A stretch of DNA of 64,000 nucleotides from Somniosus microcephalus (taxonomy: Eukaryota): positions 153,326,001 to 153,390,000 of the forward strand of contig CM126209.1 in the NCBI GenBank assembly GCA_052327205.1, given 5' to 3'. The notes below the pieces were generated by a model. That model saw only the letters and a list, made by a program, of their open reading frames with translations, was not told the origin of the DNA and did not search any database. This document shows positions 769 through 59,601 of the stretch, one piece after another. The position numbers were made by a program, and so were the translations under genes. Every line of letters begins with the position of its first letter. Position 1 is the stretch's first letter.

Positions 769-2808
769 TAGAAACATAGAAACATAGAAGATAGGAGCAG
801 GAGTAGGCCATTCGGCCCTTCGAGCCTGCTCCGCCATTCAATGAGATCATGGCTGATCATCCAAATTCAGTACCCTGTCCCTGCCTTCTCCCCATATCCC
901 TTGATCCCTTTAGCCTTAAGAAATATATCCAACTCTTTCTTGAATATATTTAATGAACTGGCCTCCACCGCCCTCTGTGGCAGAGAATTCCACAGGTTCA
1001 CCACTCTCTCGGTGAAGAAATTCCTCCTCATTTCAGTCCTAAATGGCCTACCCCTTATCCTTAGATTATGACCCCTGGTTCTGGACTCCCCGACCATCGG
1101 GAACATCCTTCCAGCATCTAGTCTGTCCAGGCCTGACAGAATTTTATAGGTTTCGATGAGATCCCCTCTCAATCTTCTAAACTCCAGTGAGTATAAGCCC
1201 AATCGACACAATCTCTCCTCATACGTCATTCCTGCCATCCCAGGTATCAGCCTGGTGAATCTTCGCTGCACTCCTTCCATGGCAAGTACATCCTTCCTCA
1301 GATAAGGCGACCAAAGCTGCACACAATACTCAAGGTGCGGTCTCACCAAGGCCCTGTACAACTGTAGCAAGACATCCTTGTTCCTGTACTTGAACCCGCT
1401 TGCTATGAAGGCCAACATACTATTTGCCTTCCTAACCACCTGCTGCACCTGCATGCTTACCTTCAATGACTGGTGCACAAGAACACCCAGGTCTTTTGCA
1501 CTTCCCCTTCTCCCAATCTATTGCCATTCAAATAATAATCTGCCTTCCTGTTTTTGCCACCAAAGTGGATAACCTCACATTTATCCACATTATAATGTAT
1601 TTGCCATGTTTCTGCCCAATCACCTAACCTGTTCAAATCATACTGGAGTTTCATGACCTCCTCCTCACAGCATACCCTCCCACCCAGCTTTGTGTTGTCT
1701 GCAAATTTGGAGATATTACATCCAATTCCCTCGTCCAGATCATTAATATATATTGTGAACAGCTGGGGTCCTAGGACCGATCCTTGCGGTACCCCACTAG
1801 TCACTGCCTGCCACTCGGAAAATGACCCATTTATTCCAACTCTTTGCTTTCTGTCCGCCAACCAGTTCTCTATCCAAGTCAATACCTTGCCCCCAATCCC
1901 ATGTGCCTTAATTTTGCACACTAATCTCTTATGCGGGACCTTATCGAAAGCCTTCTGAAAGTCCAAATACACCACATCCACTGGTTCTCCCTTATCTATT
2001 TTACCAGTTACATCCTCAAAAAATTCCAGTAGATTAGTCAAGCATGATTTACCTTTTGTAAATCCATGTTGACTTTGTCCGATCCTGTCACTGCTTTCCA
2101 AGTGCTCTGCTATTACATCTTTTATAATGAACTCTAGCATTTTCCCTACTACCGATGTCAGGCTTACCGGTCTATAATTCCCCGCTTTTTCTCTGCCACC
2201 TTTTTTGAATAGTCGGGAAACATTAGCTACCCTCCAATCCATGGGTACTGTTTCAGAGTCTATCGAGTTCTGGAAGATGACCAGCAATGCATCTACTATT
2301 TCTAGGACCACTTCCTTAAGTACCCTGGGATGTAGATTATCAGGCCCTGGGGATTTATCGGCCTTCAGTCCCATCAATTTTCCTAACACCATTTCCCTAC
2401 AAATACTGATTTCTTTCAGTTCCACCCTTTTATCAGCCCCTATGTTCCCCGGCATTTCTGGGAGGTTATTTATGTCCTCCTTTGTGAAGACAGAACCAAA
2501 ATATGTATTTAGTTGGTCTGCCATTTCTTTGTTCCCCATTATAAATTCCCCGATTCTGACTGCAAGGGACCTACGCTTGACTTCACCAATCTTTTTCACT
2601 TCACATATCTATAAAAGCTTTTACAGTCAGTTTTTATGTTTCCTGCAAGCTTACTCTCATATTCTATTTTCCCTTTCTTCATTAATCCCTTTTTCCTCCT
2701 TTGTTGAATCCGAAACTGCTCCCAATCCTCAGGATTATTGCTTTTTCTGGCCAATTTGTATGTCCTCTCCTTGGATCTTATGCTATCCCTAATTTCCCTT
2801 GTTAGCCA
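769..2808 (-). mobile_element. Young 5'-truncated CR1 LINE with a nearly intact reverse transcriptase
   Basis: ORFs 1463..2599 and 867..1478 give CR1 RT motifs (NYRPVSLTSVVGK, YLDFQKAFDKVPH, GVPQGSVLGP, FADNTKL, RPHLEYCVQLW). One frameshift near 1495. (GAAACATA)n tail at 769-786. Confidence 0.95.
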
Positions 2809-4912: not shown

Positions 4913-5181
4913 GATTTTATGCTTGCTGCATCTTCCATTCCGAAGTACTCGTTTGACTCCAGCATGCCATTGAATAAGACAGCAAGACCATTTGGTGTTA
5001 CAACTACGGAAAGTTCAAACTCAGGGACACCAATAAAGTCAGTGAGCTACAAACCTGTATCCCTATATACTCCACCTTCTGCTTTGCCTAGTATCACACC
5101 CGCATCCCAGACACAACTAAAATATGGTTCAACCACAGAAAAACACAGCTCAACTGCATCCACACTGCAGCATCCGAATGG
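4913..5181 (+). CDS. PDLIM7: PDLIM7 internal exon, 269 nt, phase 0 to 2 (DFMLAASSIPKYSFDSSMPLNKTARPFG...HPNG)
   Basis: Pyrimidine tract and cag acceptor at 4910-4912, GG|gtatgt donor. LNKTARPFG motif typical of the Enigma family. Confidence 0.9.
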
Positions 5182-8500: not shown

Positions 8501-9262
8501 GTTAGTACTTTTCTGTCTTTGCATTTATTGATATGGGTGGCATGTTGTAATTCCTTCTAAAAAGAGGTCACAGACTTGAATAGTTCCTCAATCTTTATAT
8601 GTAGAAATACAAGAAATGAACTTAAAACACACATAACCGTTGCACCCTTGAGTAATAAACCTCAAAGCCATTAACAGTTGTATTCCAAAATATAAATGCC
8701 TGCAGCAATACAGTAAATATTGACACCTAGGATACTAATTTGTAGGTTTTATGTAGCAAAAGAGAGAGAGCATAAATATTTACTATTTCTTGAGAGAGCT
8801 TTTATTATACTGCACAAAGAATGCAATGCTTCCTTGTGTTTCTGTTTAACCCTCTGAGTACTGTACCAAGATGGTATTTTAATTGTGTTTATCAAATTCA
8901 CTGCCTTTCATATCAGTTTGCTGAGTGTTCACAAGGAAACATTTTAGATTTCAGTACAAATTAGAATACTGCATATAATTTATGTAGCTTTTAAAGAAAT
9001 GCAGTACTCAAAGGGTAATGTGTGTAGAAGTCTAAATGCACTGATTTAGGTTGACCCTAATCAAGCGGTCTCTCTGTTTGTCTCTCCGCTATACACTCAA
9101 AAGTTATAGAGCGTACCTACACGCATGTTATATCAAAAGAAAGCTTATCATTAGGGGAGTCTAATAGGCATATTTACTTTTTGGTCAGACAAAAATTGTT
9201 CGGACAGTATACAAAAAAGGTTCAAAAAACCGCAACATTCCATTTATTAGCTTTGAGTGATG

Positions 9263-9390
9263 TGATGGTTGACCAATCGTACAGGGGATTAACCTGATGG
9301 TTGACCAATCGGTGCGTCACGGGGGGGCGTTTCATTGCGTGTGTGGGCGGGCCTAATCCTGCTGAGCTGAGGTGAGTGGCCGCCATCTTG
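9263..9390 (+). promoter_or_regulatory. Promoter-like module inside the Helitron-like element
   Basis: Duplicated TGATGGTTGACCAATCG (CCAAT at 9273 and 9305), TGCGTCA at 9313-9319, GGGCGGG at 9345-9351, GAG|GTGAGT donor at 9372, YY1-type GCCGCCATCTTG at 9379-9390. Confidence 0.55.
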
Positions 9391-9590
9391 ATTCCTAACT
9401 ATTGATTTATTTTTCCCACTTTCTGTGTGTACCCCGTTAGGTTCTTTTCTTAAGTTGCCTTCTTAGCTATGGGGTGCTTAAAAACCTGAACTTTAATATT
9501 TAGGAATCTCTCTTTATTGTAGTGGATGCGCGGAGCCATGGCCTAGCAGCGCGGGAAGCCTGGGCCTCGAGTTCAGCGGATTCCCGGCGC

Positions 9591-9719
9591 GCCCGGAACC
9601 TGTCGAACCTGCTCAAGGCCGTTCATTTCCGCGACCACGTCACCGTCTTCGCCTCGGCCAACGGCATCGGGGTGACGGCCGAGGCCGCCAAAAGCGTCCA
9701 GGGGAACGCGTTCATCCAG
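9591..9719 (+). pseudogene. RAD1: Captured fragment of a RAD1 (9-1-1 checkpoint clamp) coding exon
   Basis: ARNLSNLLKAVHFRDHVTVFASANGIGVTAEAAKSVQGNAFIQ aligns without gaps to human RAD1 as I recall it (VRNLSTILKAIHFREHATCFATKNGIKVTVENAKCVQANAFIQ, 29/43 by hand). Followed directly by CAG|gt. No in-frame ATG and no other RAD1 exons seen. Confidence 0.85.
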
Positions 9720-9957
9720 GTGCCGAGGCCCGGGCCACGGGAGAGGAGAGGGGAGGGAGGGACAGAGTAAAGCAGGGAGAGACGGGGGAGGGAGAGAGAG
9801 AGGGTGAGAGAGGGAAAGAGTGACGGGGTGGGAGAGGGAGGGAGAGCTCGCCTTCTTCCTTCCTTCCTTCCTTTGCAGGGGTCCATCGGGCCAGGCCTGA
9901 GGCGCTCCTTCCCCCCCCCCCTCTCTCTCCAGGCTAATCCTGAACTAAATCCAGCAG

Positions 9958-10284
9958 TGTCTCTCTCTCTCTTTTCCCCCCCCACCCCCCGTCTCTCTCT
10001 TCTCCCCCCAGTCTCTCTCTCTCCCCCCCGCCTCTCTCTCTCTCTCTCTCTCTCGCTCTCTCTCCCCCCCAGTCTCTCTCTCTCGCTCTCTCTCCCCCCC
10101 AGTCTCNNNNNNNNNNNNNNNNNNNNNNNNNNNNNNNNNNNNNNNNNNNNNNNNNNNNNNNNNNNNNNNNNNNNNNNNNNNNNNNNNNNNNNNNNNNNNN
10201 NNNNNNNNNNNNNNNNNNNNNNNNNNNNNNNNNNNNNNNNNNNNNNNNNNNNNNNNNNNNNNNNNNNNNNNNNNNTCCCCCCCC

Positions 10285-10331
<47 letters not shown>

Positions 10332-10378
10332 CCCAGTCTCTCTCTCTCTTCCCCCCCCAGTCTCTCTCTCCCCCCCAG

Positions 10379-10432
<54 letters not shown>

Positions 10433-10469
10433 TTTTTCTCTCTCTCTCTCTCTTTTTCTCTCTCTCTTC
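9958..10469. repeat. (CT)n/(CTTT)n microsatellite with repeated ctctcccccccagt units, spanning an assembly gap (N 10107-10275)
   Basis: Directly visible. Confidence 0.95.
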
Positions 10470-10729
10470 CAAAAAACAACATCCCCTCAAAAAACCCTCT
10501 CCACCGCCGGGCACTCCAGCTAGTTATCTATGCATGGCAAGCTCGCTGCTTGGAATGGGCCTAGTGTTGGAATTTAGTCAAAGGAGTTACGAATATTTGT
10601 GTGTCATGAGCCCTTAAAAGTAACAAAGTAACTTTTAAAGCAGTGAGTGGCTGTATCTGGGGGAGGGGATGGGGGCTGGAGGCAGCTAAGTGTAGAAGTG
10701 GCTGGCAAAAAATAATTAAAGGCAAAACC

Positions 10730-10935
10730 TCATGGAGGCGGGGCACTGGGCAGAATGATGAAACAATGAAATCTCTCTCTTTGGCTGGTAAAGAGGAAGT
10801 ACTGCTGCATGAGGTGAATGCAAGGAGGATTACTTGTTTGGTACTCCAGGGCATCCAACCTTGACAGGAGATGGCAGCTAGAGTCAATGCTGTGACCACA
10901 CTTGCATGAGATGGAAGAAGATGGCATGACTTAAG
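10730..10935 (+). mobile_element. Degraded Myb/SANT-like ORF remnant, probably Harbinger-derived
   Basis: KEEVLLHEVNARR and, in another frame, QEMAARVNAV. Resembles the ORF at 53980..54180. Confidence 0.45.
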
Positions 10936-11029
10936 GAAGTTGCCACAACACTAATTTGCCTGTCAACCAGTTCCAGATTTTCTGCTGGCCCATGCCAAGC
11001 CCTGACACAACCTTGCAGCTGTTTCATTG

Positions 11030-14705: not shown

Positions 14706-15444
14706 ATTTTAATGTGTAGTTGACTATTTGATGGGAGTTTGGCAATTTTCAAGCAAGCTAAGTTCCTGGAACAGCCAGCTCTGAAAATTCTGACTTTATG
14801 CTAGCTGTAGAGATGAGTTCATACTGCAATAGATGCATTGTCTGCTGTAGTGTGAAATGTAGCCAGTTAAAATAATTTAAAATTAACAACATTAAAAAAG
14901 CAACAATGAACAAGGTTTACACATCACTGCTGACATCTCGGTGACCCCTCAGTTTCCAAACATAAGTAAAATATCTTGCAAGAACTCAAACGATAGTACA
15001 TTTTTAGCCTGGTTGTCTGTAAACCTATTTGGTTTTTCTGTTTTGAAATACTAAAAAAAAGTTACTTTTTTCTTGTGTGTATGTTTTAAATTAATGATTG
15101 CAAGTCGTATATTTAGTTGCGAGTGCTCTATACCTTTCCATATATTCACAAATTAAAAATCTAATTTCCCAACGCTACTTGAAAATTGGCATTTAAAAAT
15201 GCGCATGTTGCATGCTGTGTTAGCACAGTTGCTGACAATTTAGTGAGCAGTTTTTTTTCCCTCTGTTTTCATCACAAAGCACTTGGCTGTTCTAAATAAT
15301 AGAAGTCTATGGACCTAGTTTTTTTATTGCTTCCTATATTTAGTTCACTTTCTATTAATTTGCTTTCCCTATTGCTTGTTTGCTGTGGTTTCTCATGTCT
15401 TGTAATTTACGCTAATCTTGATTTTTGTACTGTAATACACTCAG

Positions 15445-15528
15445 TGAAAATGAGGATAAATCTGAGCATCGTCCCAAGCTTAATGTTCTTCGAGATGAAG
15501 AAATGTTTTATGACCTTGGTGACTATAG
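15445..15528 (+). CDS. PDLIM7: Candidate 84-nt symmetric cassette exon of PDLIM7 (ENEDKSEHRPKLNVLRDEEMFYDLGDY)
   Basis: gctaat branch-like motif at 15411, tcag acceptor, AG|gtaagc donor. Open in the phase 2-2 frame required by the flanking exons. Confidence 0.55.
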
Positions 15529-16296
15529 GTAAGCAGAGCAAGCATGAAACCTGCGAGAGTCCTGAATATGACTGGCTTTAAATCTCCTTTTTTGTATGGT
15601 TTGCTCACTTTTTTTATATTTTTTTAGCCTCATATTTTTGTTTCCTTATTTTATCCTTTTCTTCTCTCCAAGTAGCTTTCAGCTAAGAAGTCACCATAAG
15701 TTACACCACTCTTCTTGTCGTGTGACAACCTGGAAAAAAAACTTTCAGTATATATTCAGCAACTAGAGTTGGCCATGCACGGAACTATAAAACTTCTTTT
15801 AGTTTAATGTGCACTCCGTACTGTACAAAAATATGATCTGATATTTTTTAGTATTGCACAGAAATATACCTCCAGCTCAAAGGAAGGTTTTTGCTATAAA
15901 TGTCTTCCTGGTCTGCATGACTGAATGGTGCATCAGTCTGATAAATTTATATATTGAGTCATCAAGGACACTGAATGTAGTTGTGACCATTTTGGTCCTT
16001 CAGCACCTATTTAGTGAGGTGAGATCAAGTAGCAGATGAAATTAATATGAACAGAGGCACACAATGTTGTAACATTACTCAATTGAAATGCATGGTGTTG
16101 TTATTTGCACCTTTTCACTTTCTCTTTGAGAAAGAAATCCTGAATATTATATTGTCAGACTAACTAACTTTTGAAAAGTTGATGAGTTTCTAAATGATAT
16201 GTGACCTTTTGGTAAAAACCATTTTTGAACATGTCTAATCTGATGAGACCCAGAAGATGCAGTATGTACTGTTTCAATCTCCCATAAAAGCTACTA

Positions 16297-16640
16297 CAGG
16301 TAGACTACCTTTTTATCCGAACTTCCGAAAACCGGAACCCTCTAAAAACCGAAGGTTTTTTCGTTCAGCGTAAGTCGTGCGCACGACATGACCAGAGTGG
16401 CGCACGACTTACGCTGAGCAGAGGGTCAGCGTAAGTCGTGTGCACGACCCCGGCCCCCGCCGACGACCACCCCCCCCCCCCCCCCACGCCGACCCCCCCC
16501 CGCCGACCCCCACCGCCGACCCCGATGACCCACCCCCGACAAATTTCCCAGTCTTATAAAATACCTTCCGAAATCCGATATTTTCCGAAAACCGAAACAC
16601 TGCTGGTCCCGAGGTTTTCGGATAAAGGATAGTCTACCTG
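16297..16640. mobile_element. Tc1/mariner-pogo-type MITE
   Basis: TIRs CAGGTAGACTACCTTTTTATCCGAA / TTCGGATAAAGGATAGTCTACCTG. TA on the left, TG on the right. Confidence 0.85.
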
Positions 16641-17283
16641 TGCCACGATTGGTAGTCATGTGCTTACTTTTGTATACATCGTTCTATTCTCTCCTGCTTC
16701 TCATATATTGGAATATAGAGCTCTAATGGCTCCCCTTCTCGTTTCCCACCAAACAAGCTCAGTGTAAAAGATTATGGTCCAGTTTTAAACTTTGAAATCA
16801 AATACCAAGTTTAAAAGGAGAGGTATTGCTATCAGCAGAAATAAGTTATTGGATTTTGTGAAAATAAGCCATAGAAAGGGAAAATGCTTTGGAGTAATAG
16901 TAGTGGTACTAAAGCTAAAGTGCATCATTGAGCTTGTGTGGAGAAATGTTTGGTTAATATCACCTGGCCTCTAGTTGGCTGGTCTGATATTTTCTTCTGG
17001 AATAGTTTACAGCTGATGCCTTTGTTTTTTGGAGGACATATGAATAGAAAATAATTTTACACACTTGTGAAGTCCTGTCTGTGTTGTCGTCTTTTTTTCC
17101 TGCAGTACTGACAAGATGGCTGGTGACTGATCATCTCTTTTGAGAGGCCAATTCTGTAACAGATCAAAATACATTATAGAATTTCAGATCCTCCTCCTAC
17201 ATGGTATTTGCTGATTGTAACCTTTCTGCCTTTGGCAGTAGTTGCAGTTAGAATACTTGGAGGATTTTTCTGATGGTTTTAGG

Positions 17284-21391: not shown

Positions 21392-22300
21392 TGAAATAAC
21401 AACAGAAATTGCTGGAAAAACTCAGCAGGTCAGGCAACATCCGTGGAGAGAAATTTGAGTTGATGTTTCGGGTCGAAACCCTTCTTCAAAACTGGAAAGA
21501 AAAGAAAATAGATTGAAGGCAGGGCTGCGATCGAACAAAAGAAGTAAAAGAGACAATAAAAGGTATTCGAAACCAGACGAGATGGTAATAGGCCAGTGGA
21601 GACAAAAGACAGCTGAGATTAGGTGTAAAGTGTACTGGCAGGATAGGAGACAGCTGCCAGGTGGGAGAGAGAAACAAAAGGAAAGGGGAGGGGGGGTGAA
21701 GGAAGACCCAAAACCAAAGGGGTGGAAAAAATTACAAGTAAAAAAAGTAATAGGGGCCGAGGTTATGATCTGAAATTGTTGAACTCGATATTTAGTCCGG
21801 AAGGCTGCAAAGTGCCTAATCGGAAGATGAGGTGCTGTTCCTCGAGTTTACGTTGAGCTTCCATGGAACAATACAAGAGGCCAAGGACGGTGAGGTCCGA
21901 GTGGGAATGGAGCAGTGAATTAAAATGACAAGCGACTGGAAGCTCGGGGTCACCCTTACGGACTGAACGGAGGTGTTCCGCAAAGCAGTCCCCCAATCTG
22001 CGTTTGGTCTCCCCCTTGGGGAACATCTCCGTTCAGTCCGTGAGGGTGACCCCGAGCTTCCGGTCGCTTGTCATTATTACCATCTCGTCTGGTTTCGAAT
22101 ACCTTTTATTGTCTCTTTTACTTCTTTTGTTCGATTGCAGCCCTGCCTTCGATCTATTTTATTTTCTTTCCAGTTTTGAAGAAGGGTTTCGACCCGAAAC
22201 ATCAACTCAAATTTCTCTCCATGGATGTTGCCTGACCTGAGTTTTTCCAGCAATTTCTGTTGTTGTTTCGGATTTCCAGCATCTGCAGTATTTTGCTATG
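21392..22300. mobile_element. Penelope-like element fragment with inverted pseudo-LTR arrangement
   Basis: GIY-YIG remnant GETKRRLGDCFAEHLRSV...LQPSGLNIEF (ORF 21763..22026, minus). 21392-21590 is the reverse complement of about 22074-22270. Confidence 0.88.
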
Positions 22301-26309: not shown

Positions 26310-29300
26310 GGATCAACCCACTGATATCATTGGCACCTCACTGCAATTTAAATGGCATAAAGGGCACAGAATGTACTCTAGGTGGGGGACTTCACTATCC
26401 TTCACCAAGAGTGACTCGGTAGCACCACCACTGACCGAGCTGGCCGAGTCCTGAAGGACATAGCTGCCAGACTGAGCCTGCGGCAGATGGTGAGTGAAGC
26501 AACATGAGGGGAAAAACCTACTTGCCCTCGTCCTCACCAATCCACTTGTCACAGATGCATCTGTCCATGACAACATTGATAGAAGTGACCACCGCACAGT
26601 CCTTGTGGAGACCAAGTCCTGCCTTCACACTGAGGACACCCTCCATCGTGTTGTGTGCACTACCACCATGCTAAATGGGATAGATTCAGAACAGATCTAG
26701 CAGCTCAAAACTGGACATCCATGAGGTGCTGTGGGCCATCAGCAGCAGCAGCAGAATTGTATTCTACCACAATCTCTAACTTCATGGCCCGGCATTAACC
26801 TCACTCTACCATTACCATCAAGCCAGGGGACTGATGTAAGCCCCCAAAGTGTGGACTAAGTGATATACAAAGTCGACTACACTGGCTTGTTGTAAGAAAG
26901 ACAGACCCAATAATTGAAGTAAAAACGGTTTATTCAGGCCTGGGGAGCTATGGCTCTTGCGTCCCAACACAAGGCTCCAACTCCACCGAATCTCTTGAGG
27001 TTTACACAGTTATACACATATTCCGAGACCTCCTACTCCAGAGGTCCAATCGATTTAAAAGTCTATACGTTAATCACTAACTAGGTGTGTCTAACTTCTA
27101 CAAGGTAACCAATAACATAAGTTTCACTTTTCACTGCAGGGGCCTGTGGACCCTCTGATTTCTTGGAAATGAGTCATCAGGTCATGTGATTTCTGAGAAA
27201 CGAGTCCCTCTCTCTCTTGACCACTACTAAGTTTCGTTTTTCCACAAAAGGGTTATGTCAGTGTCTCTTTTTGTAAGTTTCATCTCTCTAAACTGGTATG
27301 GTCATTTCTGCAATTAAACATACGAATAATTAGTACATTTCATCTTTAAACATTTTGCTGCGCAATTGCGTTCTACTAAACGTGCCCTGTTACGCTCATT
27401 TTTAAATCTTACTTCAGGACAAACCCTGGTTCAATGAGGAGTGCAGAAGAGCATGCCAGGAGCAGCACCAGGCGTACCTAAAAATGGTGCCAACCTGGGG
27501 AAGCTGCAACTTAGGACTACATACATGTTAAATAGCAGAAGCAGCATGCTTATAGACATGGCTAAGAGATTCACGATCAACAGATCAGATCAAAGCTCTG
27601 CAGTCCTGCCACATCCAGTCGTGAATGGTGGTGGACAATTAAACAACTAATGGAGGAGCAGGCTTCATGAATATCCCCATGCTCAATGATGGCGGAGCCC
27701 AGCACGCAAGTGCAAAAGACAAGGCTGAAGCGTTTACAGCCAGAAGTGCTGAGTGGATGATCCATATCCTCCTGAGGTCCCCACCATCAAAGAAGCCAGT
27801 CTTCAGCCAATTCAATTCACTTCACTTCACGTGGTATCAAGCAACAGCTGAGCGCACGGGATACAGCAAAGGCTATGGACCCTGACAACACCCCGGCTGC
27901 CATGCTGAAGACTTGTGCTCCAAAATTAGCCGTGCCTCTAGCCAAGCTGTTGCAGTATAGCTACAACACTGGCATCTATCCGACAATGTGGAAAACTGCC
28001 CAGGTATGTCCTGTGCACAAAAAGCAGGACAAATCCAATCCAGCCAATTACTGCCCCATCAGTCTACTCTCAATCATCAGGAAAGTGATGGAAGGTGTCG
28101 TCGACAGCGCTATCAAGCGGCACTTACTCACCAATAACCTGCTCACCGATGCTCGGTTTGGGTTCCGCCAGGACCACTTGGCTCCAGACCTCGTTACAGC
28201 CTTGGTCCAAACATAGAAAAAGAGGTGAGGTGAGAGTGACTGCCCTTGACATCACAGCAGCATTTGACCGAGTGTGGCATCAAGGAGCCCTAGTGAAATT
28301 GAAGTCAATGGGAATCGGGGAAAACTCTGCACTGGCTGGAGTCGTACCTAGCACAAACGAAGGTGGTTGTGGTTGTTGGAGGTCAATCATCTCAGCCGCA
28401 GGACATCACTGCAGGACATCCTCAGGACAGTGTCCTAGGCCTAACCATCTTCAGCTGCTTTATCAATGACCTTCCCTCCATCATAAGGTCAGAAGTGGGG
28501 ATGTTCGCTGATGATTGCATAGTGTTCAGTTCCATTCGCAACTCCTCAGATAATGAAGCAGTCCATGCCCGCATGCAGCAAGACCTGGACAACATTCAGG
28601 CTTGGGCTGATAAGTGGTGAGTAATATTTGTGTCAGACCAGTGCCAGGCAATGAGTATCTCCATGAAGCGAGAGTCTAACCACCATCCCTTGACATTCAA
28701 TGGCATTACCATCACCAAATCCTGCACCATCAACATCCTGGGGGGTCACCATTGGCCTGAAACTTAACTGGACCAGCCACATAAATACTGTGGCCATAAG
28801 AGCAGGTCAGAGGCTAGGTATTCTGTGGCGAGTGTCTCACCCCCTGACTCCCCAAAAGCCTTTCCACCATCTACAAGGCACAAGTCAGGAGTGTGATGGA
28901 ATACTATCCACTTGCCTGGATGAGTGCAGCTCCAACAACACTCAAGAAGCTCGACACCATCCAGGACAAAGCAGCCCGCTTGATTGGCACCCCATCCACC
29001 ACCTTAAACATTCCACCACTGGTGCGCCGTGGCTGCAGTGTGTAGCATCTACAAGATGCACTGCAGCAATGTGCCAAGGCTTCTTTGACAGCACCTCCCA
29101 AACCCACGATCTCTACCATTTAGAGGGACAAGGGCAGCAGGCGCATGGGAACACCATCAACTGCAAGTTCCCCTTCAAGTTACACACCATCCTGACTTGG
29201 AAGTGTATCGCTGTTCCTTCATCGTCGCTGGGTCAAAATTCTGGAACTCCCTCCCTAACAGCACTGTGGGAGTACCTTCACCACACGGACTGCAGCGGTT

Positions 29301-29410
29301 CAAGAAGGCGCTCACCGCCAGTTTCTCGAGGGCAATTAGGGATGGGCAACAAATGCTGGCCTTGCCAGCGAAGCCCACATTCCAGGAATGAATAAAGTAA
29401 AAAAAAAAAG
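26310..29410 (+). mobile_element. CR1-clade LINE, degraded, interrupted by a solo LTR
   Basis: Endonuclease RSDHRTV. RT motifs KQDKSNPANYCPISLLS, ALDITAAFDRVWH, MFADDC. 3' end gaatgaataaa plus A-run. Confidence 0.88.
26832..27416 (-). mobile_element. Solo LTR, 585 bp (ERV1-like or Gypsy)
   Basis: TG...CA ends with inverted termini TGATGTAAG / CTTACTTCA. Exact 4-bp TSD GGAC (26828-26831 and 27417-27420). AATAAA on the minus strand at 26929-26934. Confidence 0.85.
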
Positions 29411-33267: not shown

Positions 33268-35121
33268 TACATCAAAGTACTCATCAAGGACAGAGAAGCA
33301 GTCCATGCCCGCTGGAAGGAGCACTTCGAAGATCTCCTTAACCGCGACTCTGTCTTCGATGTGAGTGTCCTCAACTCCATCCCACAGCATGATACCCGCC
33401 ACCATCTCAGCACAACCCCAGCCCGGCTGAGGTTGACAAGGCCATCCAACAACTGAAGAACAACAACGCCTCTGGAGCAGATGGAATCCCCGCCGAGGCA
33501 CTAAAGCATGGCAGAGCAGCACTACTGGCGCGAATTCATGAACTAATTTCTCTTATCTGGAAGGAAGAGAGCATGCCAGGGGATCTGAGACGCCGTGATT
33601 GTGACCATCTTCAAGAAAGGTGACAAGTCTGATTTGCGGTAATACAGAGGAGTTTCCCTGCTGTCTGCCACAGGGAAAGTCATTGCAAGAATCCTCCTCA
33701 ATCGCCTCCTCCCAGTGGCCGAAGAGTTCCTCCCAGAGTCGCAATGCGGATTCCGCCCACTAAGGGGCACAATGGACATGATCCTCACCGCACGTCAATT
33801 ATAAGAGAAATGCAGGGAATAGCACCAACTGCTGTACATGGCCTTCTTTGATCTCACAAAGGCCTTCGACACTGTCAACCATGAGGGAGTATGGAGTGTC
33901 CTCCTCAAATTTGGCTGCCGTACGAACCGGAGTCAAACAAGGCTGCGTCATCGCACCAACGATCTTCTCAATCTTCCTTGCTGCAATGCTCCATCTCACC
34001 CTCAGTAAGCTCCCCACTGGAGTGGAGCTAATTTACAGAACAAACAGGAAACTGTTCAACCTCCGTCGCCTCCAGTCCAGATCCAAGGTCGTCCCATCCT
34101 CTGTCGTCGAATTACAGTATGCAGACGACGTTTGTGTCTGCGCTCACTTGGAGGCCGAACTCCAAACCATCATCAACACCTTCACTGAAGTGTACGAGAG
34201 CATAGGCCTTGCACTAAACATCCGTAAGACAAAGGTCCTCTACCAACCTGCCCCCGCCACACAGTACTGCCCCCCCCCCCCCCCCCGATTATCAAAATCC
34301 ACGACAAGGCCTTGGACAATGTGGAACACTTTCCATACCTCGGGAGCTTACTGTCGACAAGGGCAGACGTCGACGATGAAGTCCAACACTGCCTTCAGTG
34401 TGCCAGTGCAACTTTCAGTCGCCTGAGGAAGAGAGTGTTTGAAGACCAGGACCTCAAACCCGGCACTAAGCTCATGGTCTACAGAGCAGCAGTGATACCT
34501 GCCCTGCTGTATGCCTCCGAGACATGGACCACGTACAGCAGGTACCTCAAAGCGCTGGAGAGGCACCACCAACGCTGCCTCCGCAAGATCTTGCAAATCC
34601 ATTGGCAGGATAGGCGCACCAACGTCGGTGTTCTTGCTCCAGCCAACATCCCCAGCATCAAAGCTTTGACCACACTCAAGCAGCTCCGATGGACGGGTCA
34701 CATTGTCCGCATGCCCAATAAGTGACTCCCAAAACAAGCACTCTACTCGGAGCTCTGGCATGGCAAGAGAGCCCCAGGTGGGCAGAGGAAACGCTTCAAG
34801 GACACCCTCAAAGCCTCCTTCAAAAAGTGTAACATCCCCATCGACACCTGGGAATCCCTGGCCCAAGACCGCACAAAGTGGAGGAGAAGCATCCGGGAAG
34901 GCGCCGAACACCTCGAGTCTCTTCGCCAGGAGCAAGCGGAAGCCAAGCGCAAAGAGCGCACATCAACCCAAGCACCCCACCCACCCGTCCATTCAACCAC
35001 TGTCTGCCCCACCTGTGACAGAAACTGTAGGTCCCGCATTGGACTCATCAGTCACTGCGAACTCATTTTTAATGTGGAAGCAAGTCATCCTCGGTTCCGA
35101 GGAACTGCCTAAGAAGAAGAG
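33268..35121 (+). mobile_element. RTE-clade LINE, 5'-truncated and degraded
   Basis: TGVKQGCVIAPTIFSIF, LQYADD, VEHFPYLGS, LLYASETWT, QLRWTGHIVRM. (AAG)n tail after ggaactgcct. Confidence 0.92.
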
Positions 35122-38725: not shown

Positions 38726-39195
38726 AAATAAAAACGGAAAATGCTGGAAATACGCAACAGGTCAGGCAGCATCTGTGAAGAGAGAAACAGTTAACATTTC
38801 AGGTCATTGACCTTTCAACAAAACTGGGAAAAGTTAGAGATGTAACAGGTTTTAAGCAAATACAGAGGCCAGGAAAGGGTGGGGGGGGGAGGGGAGGAAA
38901 GAACAGAAGGGAAGGTTTGTGATAGGGTGGAAGACGGGAGTGATTAAATTACAAAAGGGATGATGGTGCGAGCAACAGGGAGTGGGAATGGGAAAAGCAA
39001 AGAAACAAAAGATAGAGCTAGAGGAGCTGTAAATGGCAAACAGCAGAATCATTACCAGCACCTGCTGTCCAAAAAACAGGAGCAGTGTTGAGTCCAGAAG
39101 GTTGTAAAGTGCCTAATTGAAAGATGAGGTGTTGTTCCTCAAACTTCTGTTGAGCTTCATTAGAACAGTGTAGGAGGCTGAGGTCAAAGTGGGAA
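38726..39195 (-). mobile_element. Penelope-like element fragment
   Basis: EEQHLIFQLGTLQPSGLN, and a terminal region similar to 21392-21500. Confidence 0.8.
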
Positions 39196-40489: not shown

Positions 40490-42400
40490 GATGAACATGG
40501 GAACAGGAGTAGGCCATTCAGTGAGATCATGGCTGATCCGTATTGTAACTCTAGCCACCTGTCTTGGCTCCATATCTCTTAGATTTTTGCTGGACAAAGG
40601 TATTATCAATTTCAGATTTAAGATTATTCATTTGAGCTGGCATCTACTGCTTTTTGTGGGAGAGAGTTCCACACTACTACCAGGCTCTCTGTGAAATAGT
40701 TTCCTAATTTCTCTCCTGAATGGCCTGGTCCTGACTTTAAGATTATGTCCCCTTGTCCTAGACTCCCCCACCAGTGGAAAATGTTTCTTTCTATCTACCC
40801 TATCAATTTCTTTCAAAATCCTAAAAAACCTCAATTAAAGTCACCCCCTTACCTTCTATATTCCAGGTAATACAAGCCTAGTATATGTAATCTCTCCTCA
40901 TAATTTAACCCTTGGAGCCCTGGTGACATTCTGGTGAATCTTCTGCACTCCTTCCAAGGCCAATATATCCTTCCTAAGGTGTGGTGCCCAGAACTGTACA
41001 CAGTACTCCAGATGTAGTCTAACCAGGCCTTTGTGTAGCTGCAGCAGAACTTCCTCCCCTTTATATTCTAGCCCTCTAGTTATAAAGGCTAACATTCCAT
41101 TAGCCGTTTTGATTATTTTTGTACCTGTCCACTACATTTTAGTGTTCTGTGTAGATGGAATGGACACCTAAATCTCTTTGGACCTCTGCTGTTCCTAACT
41201 TTTCACCATTTACAAAAAAATACTTGGATCTATACTTTTTTGGTTCAAAATGGATGACCTCACACTTGCCTTTTAAATCCATCTGCCATAGTTTTGCCCA
41301 CTCAGTTAATCTATCAATGCCTTTTTGTAATTTTAGGCTCTCGTCTACACTACTTCCAATGCCACCAGTCTTTGTGTCATCAGCAAACTTGGATATATGG
41401 CCCTTTATTGTGTTATTAAGAAGGACTTAGATATATTTCTTAAGGCTAAAGGGATCAAGGGATAAGGGGAGAAAGCAGGGACAGGGTACTGAATTTGGAT
41501 GATCAGCCATGATCTCATTAAATGGCGGAACAGGCTCGAGGGGCCGAATGGCCTACTCCTGCTCCTATCTTCTATGTTTCTATCTAAGTCATTAATAAAG
41601 ATAGTGAACAGTTGAGGCCCCATCAGATCCTTGTGGGCATGTAGACAACTTCCATTACAGTTTTATGTCCTCTCTTATTCCTTCATTCTAACCATAGAGT
41701 CGTCACTGATTGTTTTCCCTTACCTATACCCTCGCTTACTAATGTTTTAATAGTATCTTTAATCAATAAGGCTACCCCTCTTCTTCCAGTTTCCCTATCC
41801 TTTCTAAAGACCTGATAACGTGGAATATTAAACTCCCAATCATGACTCGCTTGCAGCCATGTCTCAGTAATGGCCACCCTGCCTTGCCCTCGAAGCTCTA
41901 TTTGAGCCTTTAATTCATTCAATGTATTTCTTGTATGCCATGCGTTGGTATACAAAGCTCTTATTTGGGCAAGAGACCCTAACCTGTCCTTCTGTCCTGA
42001 TGCTGTCTTACTCACACTCTTTAACTTAACACGTTTCTTATTTGTCACTCCTACTGTTATTTAATTATTTTAGTATTCACTTCACCCGGAGTATCTATAT
42101 CGCTGTTTGTGACCTGAACTCTGCTCTTATACTTTTTTTCAATCTGTCCCATGAAATGGAGCTCCTCCTTCCCACACCGCTCCTTTAGCCATGTGTTCAC
42201 CCTCCTGATCTGTTTGTTCCCAAATGCCAATTAGCATGTGGCGGGGGTAATAATCCTAAGATTATCATCCTTGAGGTCCTGCTTTTTAATTTAGCTCCTA
42301 ACTCCTGATACTCCCTTTGCTTCCCTATGTCATTGGTCCCCAACATGAACCATGACCACTGGATCTTCCCTCCCCACACCCACCCCTGATGCATCGCCTG
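40490..42400 (-). mobile_element. Internally deleted CR1 LINE (ORF1 esterase, endonuclease and RT remnants)
   Basis: LGTNDIG (ORF 42197..42403), ALYTNA...AITETWL (ORF 41683..42048), RLHLEYCVQFWAP, ESRTRGHNL. Confidence 0.85.
41418..41583 (+). mobile_element. Short young CR1 3' end nested in the older CR1
   Basis: Nearly identical to the reverse complement of about 775-940. Confidence 0.9.
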
Positions 42401-57949: not shown

Positions 57950-58335
57950 TTTCTCTGGAGTTTAGAAGAATGAGATGTCTTGACAGGGTAGCTGCTGGGA
58001 GGATATTTCCCCTGGCTGGGGAGTCTAGAACCAGGGGCCACAGTCTCAGAATAAGGGGTCGGCCATTTAGGACTGAGAGGAGGAGGAGAAATTTCTTCAC
58101 TCAGAGGGTGGTGAATCTTTGGAATTCTCTACCCCAGAGGGCTGCGGATGCTCAGTCGTTGAGTATATTCAAGACAGAAACCGATACATTTTTGGATATT
58201 AAGGGAATCAATGGATATGGGGGTAGTGCAGGAAAGTGAAGTTGAGGTAGAAGATCAGCCATGATCTTATTGAATGGCGGGGCAGGCTCGAGGGGCCGAA
58301 TGGCCTACTCCTGCTCCTATTTCTTATGTTCTTAT
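57950..58335 (+). mobile_element. CR1 LINE 3' fragment
   Basis: ESRTRGHSLRIRGRPFRTE...FTQRVVNLWNSLPQ and a (TTCTTATG) tail. Confidence 0.9.
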
Positions 58336-58373
58336 TTAAGTGGAAAGCCAGGTAGATGGATCCAAGTCTATTA

Positions 58374-58719
58374 CAGGTTGGACCCCGGTAATCCGGCACC
58401 CTCGGGACCAGGCCGGTGCCGGACCATTGAAAATTCCGAACCACTGAATGTGTCGAAAGTCACCACAAACACCGCCACCACCTGCTCCTCCTCTTCCTGC
58501 TGCTGCCCTCCCTGTGCCGCCCACGGGCTGCTCGGGCTCCATCGCTCCGCCGAGCCGTCGGTGATTCTGCGCGGTCCAGGCGCTGATCCTGACCCGGTGG
58601 CGGTCCCGGGACCCGAGCCGGACCCATCCCAGGGAGGGAATGTGACAGCAGGACCTTCCTCGCGCCAGACCACTGAAGGTGCCGGACCGTCGGGTGCCGG
58701 ATTACCGGGGTTCAACCTG
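58374..58719. mobile_element. Tc1/mariner-pogo-type MITE with captured host sequence (Pack-TIR-like)
   Basis: 28-bp TIRs CAGGTTG(G/A)ACCCCGGTAATCCGGCACCC with one mismatch. TA on both sides (58372-58373 and 58720-58721). Confidence 0.9.
58449..58655 (-). pseudogene. DENND11: Captured fragment resembling the first coding exon of DENND11 (LCHN/KIAA1147)
   Basis: Open minus-strand frame ending QQQEEEEQVVAVFVVTFDT matches the recalled DENND11 motif EEDQVVAVFVVTFDPRSGN. Preceded by low-complexity G/S/P-rich sequence. The match is short. Confidence 0.7.
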
Positions 58720-59601
58720 TATCATGTTTGTTCATTCTCTTAATAGAAGGTTGAATACGCACAGAAGAGTAGCTCTTCTAGATTGAGAATGAGAAACTTT
58801 AAATTGAAAACAAGATATAGGCAAGTTCACCTGGTAATTATCAAATTTAAAAGAATAAACAGTGATGCAATCAATGAACTGTAGATCCGTAGTGTCATTG
58901 ATTTTTGTCTGCTGCAGTAAATGTTGACTAAACAGCAAAATATTGCAATGAAAGGGGTCTTTGTAGCCCAGTAGGTTCTCTATCATTTCACATCTGAGAC
59001 ATCCATCCTTTACTGCTTGGAGAGTCTTTGGTTTGACTGCATGAGTCGTATGTGGAAAAGGGTTTGGGGAATGTCGATCAAACTTCTATTAGGAACAGCG
59101 AAGCAAGAATAGTTTCTATGGGGAAAATACCACACTAATGTCATGGGGCAAATGTACATTGGAAGGACAGAGAAAAAAGAGCTTTACTTTGTACCTGGCT
59201 CAAGCTATACATGGCCTGGGAGTGCTTAATGTCTAAAATAGGAAATTACTTAATTCACCATTACTAACAACCCTCACCTTTTTTGACCTTACAAAAGTCA
59301 AAAGGCAAATGTGGAGCTGTGGTATAAATTTTCACAGTGGCCTAACATAGCCATATTTAATCATTATCATCAAACATGGCTGTACTTGAACTTAGTTTAC
59401 CCCAAAGTGGTGTCAAGAGGCCCACTGCTAATAGATTTTGTTAGATATCTAGATTATTTATCCTAGCCATGTCTAAACAAATATAGTCATTGAATTACTT
59501 GAAGTTAGCTTGTGTGCTAAATTGGCTGAAAAACAAAAAATATATATTTTTCAAAGTGTGAGTTTTCTCTCTCAAAACTAACTTGCATTTCCTGTTTATA
59601 G

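Follow-up and report, generated by a model that had tools for sequence, protein, structure and literature searches.

A RAD1 exon fragment inside an intron of PDLIM7

The window, by which we mean the whole 64-kb stretch of DNA that was analysed, contains the gene PDLIM7. All 22 protein matches to this host gene were PDLIM7 or PDZ-domain proteins of cartilaginous fishes, and tblastn with named shark PDLIM7 proteins placed ten exons in order on the + strand, from 4913 to 61775 (Table 1). The host gene is closest to that of Pristiophorus among the 10 species compared (325 of 335 residues identical; 317 in the next species), though the two differ, so that the host is probably a squalomorph shark. 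The intron directly after the exon at 4913-5181 holds the insert that we describe here.

Table 1. The insert, its parts and the exons of PDLIM7, in window coordinates.
Feature	Position	Strand	Basis or remark
Helitron-like insert (putative, non-autonomous) of 1463 nt that lies between A and T; boundaries inferred	9061..10523	+	termini, CpG
AT-rich, CpG-retaining 5' segment that starts with TC, candidate left terminal sequence	9061..9260	+	CpG, base composition
Promoter-like stretch and putative short non-coding exon	9263..9371	+	repeat, motif positions, splice donor
Intron-like DNA, 151 nt, with pyrimidine tract and AG acceptor	9372..9522	+	sequence, inference
GC-rich 5' part of putative exon, without in-frame ATG	9523..9590	+	in-register test
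RAD1 first coding exon, codons 23-65, native donor at its end	9591..9719	+	Pfam, PDB, protein comparison
Intron-like DNA after the donor, GA-rich, then CT-rich	9720..9960	+	sequence
(TC)n and C-run satellite	9961..10465	+	contains 169-N gap 10107-10275
Candidate right terminal sequence, with an A-rich stretch, then GCCGGG and, after a spacer of 7 nt, GCTAG before T	10466..10523	+	tail motif, no hairpin
Coding exon of PDLIM7 that precedes the insert; phase 2 at its end	4913..5181	+	protein matches, exon map
Next PDLIM7 (alternative) exon	15440..15529	+	tblastn with named shark PDLIM7 proteins
Further PDLIM7 exons, in order	17778, 19560, 23007, 38355, 43890, 57657, 59602, 61656	+	tblastn

A sequence-only reading of this DNA had noted 43 RAD1-like codons at 9591-9719 (+), had expected RAD1 to be their best match and had described homology that halts exactly at CAG/gt. 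All three points hold. The 43 stop-free codons match the Pfam Rad1 family above its curated cut-off (E 4.8e-9), and PDB RAD1 chains align to their translation up to residue 66. A protein search with the fragment yielded 6 of 18 candidates, all of them shark or ray Rad1-domain proteins with 88-95% identity. Compared with 18 named chondrichthyan (shark and ray) RAD1 proteins, 37-41 of the 43 residues are identical, the closest being the sawshark Pristiophorus japonicus (41/43), to whose exon the fragment is identical in at most 127 of 129 nt (a best-codon estimate). The homology stops at 9719/9720, and this exon edge is native, as six other shark gene models begin or switch their N-terminus at exactly the next residue. 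The block thus represents codons 23-65 of shark RAD1 and ends at the native splice donor. In several of the shark RAD1 models (P0012, P0016, P0021 and P0023) this exon is missing.

The RAD1 piece is ectopic, inside an intron of an intact PDLIM7. This follows from the intact PDLIM7 exons around it, from the lack of any other RAD1 exon in the 64-kb window (best other tblastn E 0.054), and from the placement of RAD1 and PDLIM7, which do not share a chromosome-scale contig in any of the 10 species that can be compared (both genes on contigs larger than 50 Mb). Four taxa with one gene on a small scaffold, Heptranchias, Cetorhinus, Mustelus and S. torazame, are left out of this comparison; Mobula, from a shared record, also agrees. 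The insert shows none of what marks RAD1 at its native locus, be it a start codon, a complete first coding exon, the exons that follow or the native neighbourhood.

The element had been read as carrying a captured RAD1 exon. A RAD1 coding exon with its donor is indeed there, but it is not whole: its first 22 codons are absent or unrecognisable. RAD1 likeness begins abruptly at codon 23, the reading frame is closed upstream by an in-frame stop at 9501, and no in-frame ATG precedes the fragment (the ATGs at 9526 and 9538 are out of frame). Codons 14-22 encode nine residues that are conserved in 18/18 named proteins and are beyond recognition here: 10 of 27 nt agree, less than the mean of the shuffles. 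One private change has placed Gly where all 18 named proteins have Arg. As the start codon and the conserved codons 14-22 are missing, the RAD1 piece is a dead, non-functional fragment; its first strand-forming codons are gone as well. If 9523-9719 were spliced into the PDLIM7 transcript, either of the two downstream exons tried would be read out of frame. Read in register upstream of 9591, codons 1-22 agree in 35 of 66 nt (715/5000 shuffles as good) and the first 13 codons, a split picked post hoc, in 25 of 39 nt (53/5000 shuffles). The likeness of codons 1-13 was reached by 18-53 of 5000 shuffles for four shark proteins and by 441 for a skate, and gapped back-translation of RAD1 N-termini against 9500-9597 was not significant (115-174 of 200 shuffles as good). 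This faint likeness may be a decayed remnant.

The RAD1 block keeps 17 CpG and has a GC3 of 0.93, which, together with its near-identity to the sawshark exon, suggests that it is recent or unmethylated. Its distance from the Pristiophorus protein is similar to that between the two PDLIM7 proteins, as would be expected of a recent, endogenous fragment.

A public Pristiophorus model named 1,5-anhydro-D-fructose reductase (P0004) is a chimera of a RAD1 exon and an aldo-keto reductase, probably by annotation fusion. We considered it as a second dispersed copy and rejected it. The reductase ortholog lies on the same contig as RAD1 in three of five comparable species (Carcharodon, Amblyraja and Rhinoraja; not in two Scyliorhinus), and the Amblyraja accessions are near-adjacent (XP_032891510.1 and XP_032891513.1). 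Therefore, P0004 is most likely the native RAD1 exon fused to its neighbour in the gene model. RAD1 and the AKR1B1-like gene are separated onto two chromosomes in each of the Scyliorhinus species (P0007 and P0011 versus P0126 and P0138); the two genes share a chromosome in the white shark and two skates, and a rearrangement near RAD1 in catsharks is possible.

Boundaries and layout of the insert

The insert begins with a TC that follows an A (9060/9061) and ends with a CTAG that precedes a T (10520-10523/10524), as had been read from the letters alone. The absence of a target-site duplication was likewise borne out: no direct match between 8700-9600 and 9720-11000 is longer than 10 nt, and none of the longest lies at the insert ends. 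A 10-nt direct repeat at 9022 and 10690 was rejected as a duplication site, since by our estimate about one such match is expected by chance.

Ten A/TC sites lie in 8700-9600, and the choice of 9061 rests on the rise in CpG. There is 1 CpG in the 500 nt before the insert start, against 15 in the 460 nt after it, and 3 in the 500 nt after the insert end. At the TC itself, the count of CpG climbs from 1 per 500 nt to 6 within 200 AT-rich nt and the observed/expected ratio from 0.08 to 0.90, a value that 20 of 775 AT-rich 200-nt segments reach. The best CpG change point falls at 9062-9066 and is not significant alone (128/1000 permutations).

Within the insert, a perfect 17-nt direct repeat in 9263-9371 holds both of what we take to be CCAAT boxes, and the same stretch has a presumed GC box. 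The consensus splice donor at 9371/9372 is one of only three AG/GTRAGT sites on the + strand of the window, and a motif at 9379, presumably YY1-like, occurs once in the window. This layout of promoter, short exon, intron and acceptor looks like the 5' end of a housekeeping gene, from which it may derive. Beyond the RAD1 donor, the linker peptide of P0004, used as a proxy for the native RAD1 intron, was matched to 9720-9960 equally well in 23 of 100 shuffles, which is not significant. The 169-N gap that had been placed inside the element is confirmed as the only N run in the window. It separates the RAD1 piece from the 3' tail, and the satellite unit occurs twice before it, four times after it and nowhere else in the window.

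No RepHel transposase ORF was found in the 1463-nt insert (nine reading frames scanned, no Pfam match above the cut-off). The 11 matches from an Rfam scan all lie on the microsatellite, with scores well short of the gathering thresholds, and a bacterial promoter scan, a method not applicable here, gave nothing.

A Helitron as the probable carrier

We favour a Helitron as the carrier of the RAD1 piece. The main evidence is the 3' tail. GCCGGG, a spacer of 2-8 nt and GCTAG before T occur together once in the window (10506-10524; 0.01 expected) and in 0 of 5000 local shuffles (107/5000 for the loosest version), figures that are optimistic in that the pattern was set after seeing the window and its spacer range admits the insert's own 7-nt spacer. 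The CTAG at 10520 also has the highest upstream GC among the 61 sites in the window where CTAG precedes T. The bare termini, on the other hand, are near chance: an A/TC within 600 nt upstream and a CTAG/T within 900 nt downstream bracket 478 of 1246 test positions (38%).

The earlier call of a Helitron-like element therefore stands in part. The tail is like published Helitron tails, but there is no hairpin and the 5' end is not TA-rich, with A or T at 8 of the 16 bases after the TC. The 3' hairpin, which had been described as incomplete, is wholly absent: the minimum free energy is -0.7 kcal/mol, a fold at least as good is reached by 150 and 176 of 200 shuffles (z +0.7 and +1.1), and its strength ranks 351 among the 477 sites where CTRR precedes T. 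Because the hairpin test failed, we file the insert as Helitron-like only and not as a member of Helitron1 (HLE1). It does share with Helitron1 a 5' TC after A, a 3' CTRR before T, the lack of a target-site duplication and the lack of terminal inverted repeats (the 15 longest inverted matches between the left and right zones are all microsatellite).

Neither insert end has a second copy within the 64-kb window, and no repeat copy of the flanks in the window could serve as an empty site. Protein collections held no second dispersed copy of the RAD1 fragment. A HMMER scan of a 50% representative protein library gave 55 matches, none above 71% identity, and so no shark-like chimeric copy in that library. 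Plasmid blastn and a pattern scan of prokaryote genomes gave no match and are uninformative on eukaryotic copy number. By motif, no named Helitron family matched in published supplementary sequences (including PMC4224331 and PMC12001565).

Comparison with known Helitrons

Bat Helitrons show a preference for cargo made up of a promoter, first exon and first intron, and 5' gene ends dominate the captures (PMC4224331). A close parallel is HelibatN3 with related Myotis elements. These, too, are short and non-coding, carry a promoter-like stretch together with a first coding exon and the beginning of an intron, and have TC...CTAG ends between A and T (PMC4224331). Unlike the shark insert, with no hairpin and one known copy, they possess a hairpin, occur in up to thousands of copies and have empty sites that were verified. 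Their cargo and host also differ, and four supplement files of PMC4224331 contain no RAD1 match.

Heli1Xen1 of Xenopus laevis is a vertebrate Helitron1 with CDS fragments mostly from 5' gene ends (17 of 19) and with low copy numbers (PMC12001565). It has its own TA-rich left end and a hairpin, both missing from the shark insert, and neither the window motifs nor rad1 were found in five of its supplement files (PMC12001565).

The 3' tail has its closest counterpart in silkworm. In BmHel-3a, -3b, -4 and -11, the element closes with GCCGGG and, after a short spacer, GCTAG in front of a T; an A-rich stretch precedes the tail in some families, whereas BmHel-13 and -14 are given without this tail (PMC3789558). 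The spacer in these families is 3 nt (range 2-5 nt) against 7 nt here, so that the likeness is a motif resemblance and not family identity. Unlike the shark insert, the BmHel families have a left hairpin arm and TA-rich 5' ends (PMC3789558).

The sequence-only reading knew of no such capture in cartilaginous fishes. For gene capture by Helitrons, searches of the open-access literature yielded no report in this group; Helitrons themselves have already been reported from it. They are listed for elephant shark, thorny skate, stingray and white shark (Helitron-1_CM, Helitron-1/2_AmRa, and HLE1 in Hypanus sabinus (1651) and Carcharodon (1); PMC11417382) and are reported from the whale shark (PMC8455134), with no cargo described in the parts of these accounts that we cover. 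PMC10468316 mentions Helitrons only in a reference. HLE1 transposases occur in four of eight chondrichthyan genomes (PMC11417382), which makes a mobiliser for the insert plausible.

Alternative origins

The strongest alternative is a one-off DNA-level duplication of a RAD1 5' fragment, by break repair or template switching. The termini would then be fortuitous, or part of a separate small Helitron remnant that adjoins or surrounds the fragment and never carried RAD1. The frequency of bracketing termini, the missing hairpin and the single copy in the window are all compatible with this, as are the unstable satellite and the gap between the RAD1 piece and the tail, and a near-palindrome (9571-9608) straddles the 5' breakpoint of the RAD1 piece. 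What it leaves unexplained is a rare Helitron-type tail that lies 800 nt downstream and points the same way, and CpG-rich yet AT-rich DNA that starts from a TC 530 nt upstream. We regard this origin as possible, at clearly lower odds than capture by a Helitron. An inverted near-copy of the 3' tail motif (9573-9588, -) lies inside this weak palindrome, at the RAD1 breakpoint. The two could mark a template switch; the tail echo was reached in 75-126 of 5000 local shuffles by motif and in 513 of 3000 by alignment, and we do not count it as evidence.

An assembly artefact would have joined the native GC-rich RAD1 first exon into the PDLIM7 intron. The sole gap of the window does lie in the insert, and the RAD1 first exon, missing from several shark models, seems hard to assemble. 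There is, however, no gap between the PDLIM7 exon at 4913-5181 and the RAD1 piece, the same satellite unit flanks the gap on both sides and the order of the PDLIM7 exons is intact. Moreover, the fragment is unlike a working exon, without a start and without nine residues present in 18/18 proteins, and with Gly for Arg. This makes an artefact very unlikely.

We give just as little credence to a different carrier, be it a Helentron (HLE2) or a cut-and-paste transposon of the Pack-MULE or hAT type that had picked up DNA. Young TA-flanked inverted-repeat elements do occur in the window, but the insert has only microsatellite inverted matches and no duplication at its ends, and its junction is A/T where T/T is given for HLE2 (PMC11417382). 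As there are no inverted repeats and no T/T site, both types are excluded at the insert ends given here.

Least credible, on a par with a different carrier, is LINE retrocopying of an unspliced or prematurely ended RAD1 transcript: reverse-transcriptase remnants of LINEs are abundant in the window and repair-gene retrogenes have been reported in the Greenland shark (10.1101/2024.09.09.611499), but the insert has no exon-exon junction, poly(A) or target-site duplication, and promoter-like DNA precedes the putative first exon.

Capture by a Helitron would have copied DNA, as had been proposed from the retained donor and the intron-like flank. Copying at the DNA level is favoured because the donor is kept, the next RAD1 exon and poly(A) are absent and the ends lack a duplication. 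A retrocopy would run on into the next exon of RAD1, whereas here the donor gives way to low-complexity, intron-like DNA. Among the features of processed pseudogenes, neither joined exons, a poly(A) tail nor a target-site duplication was found, and there is no A or T run of 8 or more that could be a poly(A) trace.

Proposed history of the insert

In the account that we prefer, to which we assign a probability of roughly 0.6, a non-autonomous rolling-circle (Helitron1-like) element would have captured, as DNA, part of the CpG-island 5' end of the host's RAD1. The cargo would comprise the 3' two thirds of the first coding exon, the donor and probably intron DNA. A second captured stretch, holding the promoter, short exon and intron, would have come from RAD1 or from another housekeeping gene. 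In a squalomorph shark, a copy of the element, mobilised in trans by a RepHel transposase, would then have entered an intron of PDLIM7 between A and T. Loss of the hairpin raises read-through capture by the Helitron Helraiser (PMC4778049), and here it would either have favoured such capture or have left the copy dead.

What lies in the PDLIM7 intron is a real, ectopic and dead RAD1 exon fragment, and it is probably the cargo of a Helitron. The mechanism is known from bats and frogs; the lineage is that of the cartilaginous fishes, and the insert is a single copy with imperfect ends. If confirmed, it would add cartilaginous fishes to the bats and frogs in which Helitrons capture gene fragments with a bias for 5' ends. 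Published accounts describe the genomes of cartilaginous fishes as dominated by LINEs and poor in DNA transposons (PMC5381603, PMC6817897). The insert also means that partial copies of repair genes in squalomorph sharks can arise at the DNA level and be dead. Such copies bear on claims that link duplications of repair genes to shark longevity; a Greenland shark preprint ascribes repair-gene duplicates to retrotransposition, and its main text does not name RAD1 (10.1101/2024.09.09.611499).

A bolder extension, which we consider unlikely, is that a squalomorph Helitron family has amplified DNA with the CCAAT/GC-box housekeeping promoter and RAD1 first exon to many sites, and that its copies, among them the present one, which lies in sense orientation within PDLIM7 and has kept its CpGs, act as unmethylated alternative promoters or splice cassettes. 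If true, Helitrons would be seen for the first time, within the reach of searches of open-access papers, to shuffle promoters and exons in cartilaginous fishes, and this would be a source of false or partial duplicates of DNA-repair genes in shark longevity genomics.

Other elements in the window

The window holds several further elements. A CpG-rich MITE-like insert at 16296-16641 has terminal inverted repeats of ~25 nt, an internal palindrome and a C-rich minisatellite, and by its resemblance we take it to be of Tc1/pogo type. A second MITE-like insert (58372-58721) is TA-flanked and has 30-nt inverted repeats that are 97% identical; its GC-rich, CpG-rich interior might be captured DNA. At 21393-22269 lies an inverted duplication with 198-nt arms at 96% identity and an inner inverted pair of 60 nt, possibly a Penelope-like element, with related pieces at 38726-39195. 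Reading frames like LINE reverse transcriptases are found at 867-2608 (-), 27776-29395 and 33782-35112, which we assume from their resemblance to be of CR1/L2/RTE type, and copies of LINE 3' ends lie at 776-946, 41414-41583 and 57979-58330.
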